DNA of 1,610 bases from Escherichia coli. GTDB lineage: Bacteria; Pseudomonadota; Gammaproteobacteria; Enterobacterales; Enterobacteriaceae. The notes under the pieces were generated by a model. The model was not told the origin of the DNA, searched no databases, and worked only from the letters and a program-made list of their open reading frames with translations. Positions 1 through 1,610 of the stretch are shown here, piece by piece; within the stretch, counting starts at the first letter, position 1; each line of letters starts with the position of its first letter. The stretch is from NCBI RefSeq assembly GCF_003334405.1, contig NZ_QOWM01000042.1; one strand, given 5' to 3'. The position numbers and the translations under genes were made by a program.

Positions 1-1610
1 ACGCTGGCGCGGCTGTGGGGGGCGCTGCCGCCGGATATCCGGTTAAGCCCGCATCTTTACCTGGCGACCAACAGCGCACAGGGGCCGTGGTGGATACTGG
101 GGTGGTCTGAGCGGGTGCCGGGTGCTGAGGACGTACTGCCAGCGCCGCTGCCGCCGTACCGGGTGCTTACCGGGATGGCGGACCGCTTCGGGCGGACGCT
201 GACGTACCGGCGTGAGGCCGCCGGTGACCTGGCCGGGGAAATCACCGGCGTGACGGACGGTGCCGGGCGGGAGTTCCGTCTGGTGCTGACCACGCAGGCG
301 CAGCGTGCGGAAGAGGCCCGCACCTCTTCGCTATCTTCTTCTGACAGTTCCCGCCCTCTCTCAGCCTCAGCGTTCCCCGACACACTGCCCGGTACCGAAT
401 ACGGCCCCGACAGGGGTATCCGCCTTTCGGCGGTGTGGCTGATGCACGACCCGGCATACCCGGAGAGCCTGCCCGCTGCGCCACTGGTGCGGTACACGTA
501 TACGGAAGCCGGTGAACTGCTGGCGGTATATGACCGCAGCAATACGCAGGTGCGCGCTTTCACGTATGACGCGCAGCACCCGGGCCGGATGGTGGCGCAC
601 CGTTACGCGGGAAGGCCGGAGATGCGCTACCGCTACGACGATACGGGGCGGGTGGTGGAGCAACTGAACCCGGCAGGGTTAAGCTACCGCTATCTTTATG
701 AGCAGGACCGCATCACCGTCACCGACAGCCTGAACCGGCGTGAGGTGCTGCATACAGAAGGCGGGGCCGGGCTGAAACGGGTGGTGAAAAAAGAACTGGC
801 GGACGGCAGCGTCACGCGCAGCGGGTATGACGCGGCAGGAAGGCTCACGGCGCAGACGGACGCGGCGGGACGGAGGACAGAGTACGGTCTGAATGTGGTG
901 TCCGGCGATATCACGGACATCACCACACCGGACGGGCGGGAGACGAAATTTTACTATAACGACGGGAACCAGCTGACGGCGGTGGTGTCCCCGGACGGGC
1001 TGGAGAGCCGCCGGGAATATGATGAACCGGGCAGGCTGGTATCGGAGACATCGCGCAGCGGGGAGACAGTACGCTACCGCTACGATGACGCGCACAGTGA
1101 GTTACCGGCGACGACAACGGATGCGACGGGCAGCACCCGGCAGATGACGTGGAGCCGCTACGGGCAGTTGCTGGCGTTCACTGACTGCTCGGGCTACCAG
1201 ACCCGCTATGAATACGACCGCTTCGGCCAGATGACGGCGGTTCACCGCGAGGAAGGTATCAGCCTTTACCGCCACTATGACAACCGTGGCCGGTTAACCT
1301 CGGTGAAAGACGCACAGGGCCGTGAAACGCGGTATGAATACAACGCCGCAGGCGACCTGACTGCCGTTATCACCCCGGACGGCAACCGGAGCGAGACACA
1401 GTACGATGCGTGGGGAAAGGCGGTCAGCACCACGCAGGGCGGGCTGACGCGCAGTATGGAGTACGATGCTGCCGGACGTGTCATCAGCCTGACCAACGAG
1501 AACGGCAGCCACAGCGTCTTCAGTTACGATGCGCTGGACCGGCTGGTACAGCAGGGCGGCTTTGACGGGCGGACGCAACGTTATCATTATGACCTGACCG
1601 GAAAACTCAC
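1..1610 (+). CDS. rhs: Rhs-family YD-repeat protein, conserved core region (partial at both ends; internal fragment of a much longer ORF)
   Basis: Seen in sequence: frame 1 (position 1 = first base of a codon) is open through 1608 with no stop codon; I translated it codon by codon. Translation includes ...RYRYDDTGRVVEQLNPAGLSYRYLYEQDRITVTD..., ...TRSGYDAAGRLTAQTDAAGRRTEYG..., ...VRYRYDDAHSELPATTTDATGST..., ...TRYEYDRFGQMTAVHREEGISLYRHYDNRGRLTSVKDAQGRETRYEYNAAGDLTAVITPDGNRSETQYDAWGKAVS...MEYDAAGRVISLTNENGSHSVFSYDALDRLVQQGGFDGRTQRYHYDLTGKL. Established knowledge: this YD/RHS repeat signature defines Rhs/teneurin/TcC-type shell proteins, and the sequence matches my recollection of the E. coli-type Rhs core. 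Family-level symbol only; the paralog letter cannot be assigned from the core. True start and stop are outside the window. Confidence 0.93.
322..378 (+). other. Ser-rich low-complexity segment (TSSLSSSDSSRPLSASAFP) within the CDS; likely flexible linker preceding the YD-repeat region
   Basis: Seen in sequence: codons 322-378 translate to TSSLSSSDSSRPLSASAFP. The DNA here is a pyrimidine-rich tract (cacctcttcgctatcttcttctgacagttcccgccctctctcagcctcag) with T/A-ending serine codons (TCT, TCA), unlike the G/C-ending codons elsewhere. The linker function is inference. Confidence 0.5.
487..1608 (+). repeat. Array of ~17 degenerate YD (RHS) repeats, conserved at protein level, within the Rhs core CDS
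   Basis: Seen in sequence: consecutive units at approx 487-552, 553-624, 625-684, 685-780, 814-876, 877-942, 943-1005, 1006-1068, 1069-1137, 1138-1200, 1201-1263, 1264-1326, 1327-1395, 1396-1455, 1456-1515, 1516-1575, 1576-1608+. Each has an aromatic-rich start (RYxYD / YxYD / EYD) followed by G(R/D/Q)(L/V/M)(T/I/V). Unit boundaries are approximate. At nucleotide level the units are diverged, apart from short shared codon strings such as cgctaccgctacga. Possible additional RHS-like unit upstream at ~181-290 (FGRTLTYRREAAGDLAGEITGVTDGAGREFRL). Confidence 0.75.

Follow-up and report, generated by a model that had tools for sequence, protein, structure and literature searches.

We focus here on the 5' end of a 1,610-nucleotide stretch of Escherichia coli DNA (contig NZ_QOWM01000042.1; the window), which encodes part of an Rhs protein. 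The question raised by this locus is what its first 321 bases stand for. The initial annotation had set them apart as a pre-repeat, N-proximal region ahead of the regular YD-repeat array, and N-terminal regions of Rhs proteins often carry secretion-targeting modules such as PAAR-like domains. The window belongs to rhsD, and we put at about 90% the probability that the 107 residues encoded by bases 1-321 (RhsD residues 154-260) form the beginning of the shell wall, right after the DUF6531 plug, and not a secretion-targeting domain. The gene identity, frame, start codon, domain layout, fold and conservation described below were all computed here.

The window as part of rhsD

In a Megablast comparison with the complete E. 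coli genomes (n=5426), the window was present in 3661 of the 5426. Its best matches, with 99.9% identity over 1610 bases, are annotated as "rhs element protein RhsD". In the best-matching record (L001), the window corresponds to bases 12001-13610 and the rhsD coding sequence, of 1426 residues, to bases 11542-15822. Codon 154 of rhsD opens with window base 1, which bears out the initial annotation in its view that the opening ACG is not a start codon. The whole window (bases 1-1610, plus strand) is thus an internal fragment of the rhsD coding sequence, comprising codons 154-689 and two further bases and open at both ends, an assignment based on Megablast, the open frame and the family profile described below. 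Bases 1-321, which encode RhsD residues 154-260, match K-12 rhsD with 100% identity. This 321-base segment was found in 3524 of the 5426 complete genomes, with at least 95% identity in 3512 of the 3525 matching records. The sole mismatch between the window and its nearest complete genome lies outside the segment, at base 989 (C versus A, codon 330 of the window). As a side observation, this change yields S483 instead of Y483 in the motif AVV(S/Y)PDG inside a repeat.

The reading frame agrees with the assignment. Frame +1 has no stops across the 1610 bases, while the remaining five frames have 7-23, and the GC content at third codon positions is 0.77 for the whole window and 0.82 for bases 1-321. 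Antisense and off-frame open reading frames, such as one of 168 aa on the minus strand at bases 57-563, were rejected as by-products of a coding region with 64% GC because their frames carry 7-23 stops and have no annotation support. Against the NCBIfam equivalog RHS_core (NF041261), the 107 residues in question fall at profile positions 154-260, and full-length RhsD of the matching genome reaches 2786.3 bits (residues 1-1258), which exceeds the curated cut-off of 2000. The full protein also passes TIGR01643 (155 bits) and TIGR03696 (82 bits, residues 1181-1258). Apart from this, a search of both strands of the window against Rfam at permissive thresholds gave no match, and the DNA repeats found within the window were limited to short pairs (14-17 nt) that mirror the repeats of the protein. 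Bases 1-321 are therefore an ordinary internal part of a long-known E. coli gene, and the biology of rhsD is already known.

From the plug into the shell wall

The fold of the segment was predicted as part of RhsD residues 1-700 with AlphaFold2. The alignment used (A1) contains 59 homologs with 31-80% identity, and all conservation and occupancy figures in this text refer to it. It was obtained from a representative-library search; a word-indexed search gave almost solely close E. coli paralogs and was too shallow to model from. The resulting model has a mean predicted local distance difference test score (pLDDT) of 90 and a predicted template modeling score of 0.87. [quoted passage not shown] RhsA (7q97) of Pseudomonas protegens came second with a TM score of 0.73, followed by other T6SS Rhs cores. 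Moreover, the A1 profile aligned with the Tse5 shell end to end, profile positions 48-1166 matching chain residues 1-1121 with 1168 bits; RhsD residues 154-260 have their counterpart in Tse5 residues ~147-232.

These two relatives indicate where the plug ends. In Tse5 the plug comprises residues 48-124 and the barrel comes after it, with a DxxGR motif making the hairpin turns (PMC10684867), and in RhsA the plug comprises residues 268-386, while the upper Rhs repeats bear hydrophobic patches complementary to it (PMC8765631). Since the plug ends at residue 124 of Tse5 and 386 of RhsA and the barrel is next, RhsD residues 154-260 would be the start of the shell wall. By analogy with the two structures, and given the plug-complementary patches in the upper repeats of RhsA, these first strands would form the rim of the N-terminal opening of the shell where the plug sits. 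The shell itself would enclose the C-terminal toxin, in this case a DUF4329 domain.

On the plus strand of the window, the first feature in the model is a post-plug connector (bases 1-57, RhsD residues 154-172), with short helices at residues 156-160 and 164-167 and block pLDDT values of 88-93; it aligns with Tse5 chain residues ~99-118. It is followed by the first, non-canonical beta-hairpin of the shell (bases 58-102, residues 173-187), with strands at 173-176 and 183-187 (WWILG). The peptide quoted in the initial annotation is correct and the Trp-rich start that it pointed out is real: GPWWILGW is encoded by bases 82-105, and of the seven Trp encoded by the 536 codons, four lie within the first 35. 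Of the Trp in this stretch, the middle one, W184, is alone in being shared across the family (83%); W183 is found in 31% of homologs, position 186 is Phe in 75% of them, and position 188, a Trp in RhsD, is mostly Pro.

These first 20-50 residues, with their two short helices and W-rich hairpin, could instead belong to the plug and aperture assembly and help to hold the cleaved N-terminal peptide. In Tse5, residues S131, S133, E134 and Q363 at the N-terminal aperture of the shell help to thread the N-terminal peptide (PMC10684867), and the RhsD equivalents S134, S136 and E137, located 17-20 residues before the window, are 90-97% conserved. In addition, phmmer alignments to Tse5 and RhsA that start in the plug continue to residues 165-169. 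However, when the published plug limits of both proteins are carried over to RhsD, the plug ends near residue 130, Pfam DUF6531 stops at residue 123, and residues 154-172 are only moderately conserved (W159 73%, P163 66%). We consider a role in the plug assembly unlikely, and the connector and the W-rich hairpin are better read as the beginning of the shell wall.

Further along, the shell wall takes on the form seen in the rest of the protein. The first canonical hairpin of the Rhs/YD type (bases 157-213, residues 206-224) has strands at 206-213 and 219-224 and the turn DRFGR at bases 181-195, with L209, D214 and G217 conserved in 90%, 88% and 97% of homologs, respectively. The second (bases 241-294, residues 234-251) has strands at 234-238 and 244-251 and the turn DGAGR at bases 256-270; here, D239 and R243 are conserved in 100% and G242 in 98%. 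The label "pre-repeat" is thus appropriate up to about base 157 but not for window residues 53-98 (bases 157-294), which are two canonical DxxGR hairpins and look pre-repeat because Pfam RHS_repeat barely detects them (E 0.61). The array begins ~55 codons before the place where sequence-repeat models put its start. After the second hairpin, an alpha-helix is predicted by AlphaFold for residues 252-265 (bases 295-336, QAQRAEEARTSSLS). Base 321, given earlier as the end point of the region, lies inside this helix, which leads to a Ser-rich insertion, and it does not mark a domain boundary. The regular YD-repeat shell then goes on from base 418 to base 1610, with strand pairs in the model from residue 293. 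In the window as a whole, Pfam RHS_repeat (PF05593) gives eight matches with E <= 0.001 and one with E 0.0014, at window residues 167-525.

Two stretches depart from this regular arrangement. Between the non-canonical hairpin and the first canonical one lies a variable loop (bases 103-156, residues 188-205, WSERVPGAEDVLPAPLPP) with no regular structure and a dip in pLDDT to 71-84. At positions 190-201, 21-39 of the 59 homologs have a residue, and the loop ERVPGAEDVLPAPLP (window bases 109-153, RhsD residues 190-204), seen in about one third to two thirds of the homologs, is missing from Tse5. The second stretch is the Ser-rich low-complexity insertion (TSSLSSSDSSRPLSASAFPDTLPG...; window bases 322-411, RhsD residues 261-290), which interrupts the repeat array and in which the RhsD-type and RhsB-type proteins of E. 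coli differ through substitutions and indels. Its low-confidence part comprises residues 266-290 (bases 337-411; block pLDDT 58-77, low homolog occupancy), and the Ser-rich positions 261-284 are occupied in 1-15 of the 59 homologs, being specific to the E. coli-like clade.

Loop 190-204 and the Ser-rich residues 261-290 could form a surface that binds VgrG or an adaptor, which would make the segment a determinant of delivery. One of the three PAAR repeats is kept in RhsD/E-type proteins, so extra contacts with the VgrG spike may be needed, and because the loops are close in sequence to the N-terminal plug, they are probably near the N-terminal opening of the shell. We hold such a surface to be very improbable. 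A further-reaching proposal is that residues 154-260 as a whole are an independent secretion-targeting or adaptor-binding module, PAAR-like or of some other DUF family, that sets the delivery route. In principle, such a module could make its contacts through the two surface loops that vary between lineages (190-204 and the start of 261-290). However, residues 154-260 have no Pfam or NCBIfam domain matches besides RHS_core and RHS_repeat, the PAAR-related repeat and DUF6531 both lie upstream of the window, the strands, modeled with high confidence, run on into those of the shell, and the region falls within the fold match to Tse5. A separate targeting module is hardly credible in light of this, which leaves the shell wall as the preferred reading of the segment.

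Several points nevertheless weigh against that reading or parts of it. The RHS_repeat match to the two hairpins is non-significant (window residues 56-90, with the E value given above). The pairwise match to Tse5 over residues 215-251 alone is also non-significant, and the homology in this part is carried by the profile alignment alone. Contact of residues 154-260 with the plug or the N-terminal peptide would follow by analogy from the papers on the homologs. In the literature, an experiment on cleavage or secretion of RhsD itself was not found, and in record L001, the 12 kb on each side of rhsD contain neither vgrG nor hcp nor any other T6SS gene.

The start of RhsD and its upstream domains

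The true N-terminus lies upstream of this N-proximal Rhs part, as the initial annotation had inferred, and so do the delivery-related elements. The annotated rhsD ATG (L001 base 11542) lies 459 nt, or 153 codons, 5' of the window. A Shine-Dalgarno sequence, AAGGG, precedes it by 8 nt and an in-frame TAA by 9 codons, with no alternative start codon between. A start at the edge of the window, and hence an unusually short Rhs-like protein, is thereby excluded. The intergenic region ahead of rhsD has a GC content of 27%, which jumps to 61-70% in the rhsD core and falls to 32-48% in the 3' tip. A GC-rich core with an AT-rich tip is the classical pattern of Rhs elements described by Hill and colleagues (summarized in PMC2935791). 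A promoter scan upstream of rhsD gave sites not more numerous than in shuffled sequence.

In the upstream part, the layout of RhsD is a PAAR repeat at residues 2-29, a linker at 30-47, the N47/P48 position and the plug from residue 48 to ~125. Of the N-terminal domain models searched, DUF6531 is found at residues 46-123 (Pfam, E 1.3e-18), while the PAAR models fall short. The Pfam PAAR_motif (PF05488) gives two partial, sub-threshold matches at residues 2-29 (E 0.14 and 1.5), and the NCBIfam T6SS_PAAR_dom (NF033420), a model of the complete three-repeat PAAR domain, scores 12.4 bits versus a cut-off of 124. A search of solved structures was more informative: residues 2-29 (SGKPAARQGDMTQYGGPIVQGSAGVRIG) match the last of three PAAR repeats in 4jiv_D (residues 67-93 of 93, E 0.008) and in 9rce_c (residues 71-98 of 99). 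These residues, encoded at L001 11545-11628, include the literal letters P-A-A-R.

Homologs with the complete domain offer a comparison. In P0196, P0199, P0201, P0244 and P0247, three PAAR repeats stand before the same ACSxCPGG...PVNPLLGAKVL linker and plug. One of these, P0199, served as a control and matches Pfam PAAR_motif with E 4.6e-21; residue 1 of RhsD aligns to its residue 61, with 40% identity over 256 residues. Judged from these sequence comparisons, the N-terminus of RhsD is a one-repeat PAAR remnant and not a full PAAR domain. The upstream PAAR-type element that the initial annotation had allowed for is therefore present in a reduced form, as a single repeat that stays below threshold in Pfam and NCBIfam.

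The linker ends at a motif of the cleavage type. PVNPLLGAKVL starts at P48, and conservation reaches 90% or more at P48, V49, P51, K56 and L58, while G54 is invariant across the 59 homologs. In alignments, the motif coincides with the residue that opens the Tse5 shell chain (8cp6_B) and with H304/P305 of P. protegens RhsA. The N-terminal cleavage sites of both proteins have been determined experimentally, at K47/P48 in Tse5 (PMC10684867) and at H304/P305 in RhsA (PMC8765631), and by analogy RhsD would be cleaved at N47/P48.

The rhsD locus and its known relatives

Whether RhsD is delivered at all is a separate matter from what the segment encodes. The toxin tip, outside the window, is a DUF4329 domain (Pfam, E 2e-37), and it is preceded by an aspartyl autoprotease motif, DPMG-x18-DPMG, read from the translation and likewise outside the window. 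The neighbors of rhsD are ybbP upstream and ybbC with an orphan Rhs C-terminal fragment downstream. In L001, bases 15862-17411 contain ybbC (YbbC/YhhH family), then the orphan "RHS repeat-associated core" fragment without an N-terminus, then small hypothetical genes; ybbC is probably the immunity gene. A neighboring vgrG or hcp gene, which the initial annotation had suggested looking for, does not occur in the 12-kb flanks.

From this arrangement, it could be argued that rhsD is an unused relic here: with no vgrG or hcp nearby, RhsD would go undelivered and the segment would have no current function. K-12 strains are not known to carry a T6SS, although a literature search gave no explicit statement to this effect. 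In line with the lack of T6SS genes in the flanks of rhsD, an in-silico study of enterohemorrhagic E. coli calls rhsA-D "orphan" genes outside the vgrG islands (PMC7216683). However, the frame of 1426 codons is intact, and the 321-base segment is nearly uniform across the thousands of records counted above. Moreover, a close copy is linked to vgrG. At the rhsE locus of O157:H7 FWSEC0004 (L002 6367-12744), the same segment occurs with 99.1% identity and at the same 459-nt offset in an RHS core gene that starts 67 nt 3' of a gene annotated as T6SS VgrG (WP_000103276.1). Over its first 260 residues the encoded protein shares 98% identity with RhsD, with no differences at residues 154-260. By association, this copy links the N-terminal module to VgrG-dependent export, which may apply to the rhsD copy as well. 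Given the vgrG-linked N-terminus in O157:H7, service in trans or a role as a recombination reservoir is conceivable for orphan copies. We regard a relic as unlikely, and in any case, this alternative concerns the use of the gene and not what the sequence encodes, which we continue to read as shell wall.

A separate observation concerns two proteins in which these genes are joined. P0011 (701 aa) and P0018 (538 aa) consist of an Rhs N-terminus (~375 and ~325 residues, respectively) fused to a C-terminal part of VgrG. Each is the sole member of its own cluster, and the last residues of P0018, ...KQDTPDMREY, match those with which the VgrG gene of O157:H7 ends. The two proteins may have arisen by recombination or be artifacts of assembly.

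For the field at large, these results are of little consequence, as few repeat-protein genes of E. coli have been studied for as long as the one that contains the segment, and the class of fold has been solved in its close architectural relatives Tse5 and RhsA. What is gained is a cleaner annotation, in which the real start is in place, the PAAR repeat, cleavage motif and DUF6531 plug are assigned to the part upstream of the window, and the array has its earlier beginning. A possible point for specialists is the one-repeat PAAR remnant as opposed to the three-repeat homologs, which lies outside bases 1-321; the term "PAAR-like" is already used in the Tse5 literature.

The closest known system is the gene itself. 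The window is the same gene as E. coli RhsD (b0497), of the RhsD/E subfamily of Rhs element core proteins. The two share the neighbors (ybbP upstream, ybbC and the orphan Rhs tip downstream), the GC-rich core and the AT-rich tip, and they differ in the single base at 989 noted for the nearest complete genome. RhsD has what defines an Rhs/YD-repeat protein, namely multiple RHS/YD repeats and a C-terminal core with DPxG-x18-DPxG before a variable tip.

Among proteins of known structure, Tse5 of P. aeruginosa (PDB 8CP6) has the same layout: an N-terminal fragment of ~47 residues, termed "PAAR-like", a cleavage position before PVNP(M/L)LG (putative in RhsD), the DUF6531 plug and then the YD shell. 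RhsD has the plug and the cleavage motif of the Tse5 type, but linkage to vgrG or other T6SS genes is absent within 12 kb at the rhsD locus. The two proteins are ~31% identical, and Tse5 has neither the 190-204 loop nor the Ser-rich 261-290 insertion. They also differ at the toxin end, which is pore-forming in Tse5 and a DUF4329 domain in RhsD. Cleavage and VgrG dependence were demonstrated experimentally for Tse5, whereas in RhsD they are putative. RhsA of P. protegens (PDB 7Q97) resembles RhsD in its plug (cork), in N-terminal cleavage before a Pro (putative in RhsD) and in its Rhs cocoon. However, its N-terminal region is 304 residues long and comprises a prePAAR motif, transmembrane helices and a full PAAR domain, in contrast to the 47 residues and single PAAR repeat of RhsD. 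Canonical PAAR proteins such as PDB 4JIV chain D (93 residues) have three repeats, the third and last of which is shared with RhsD residues 2-29. RhsD has only this one, upstream of the window, where models of the whole domain failed to recognize it.

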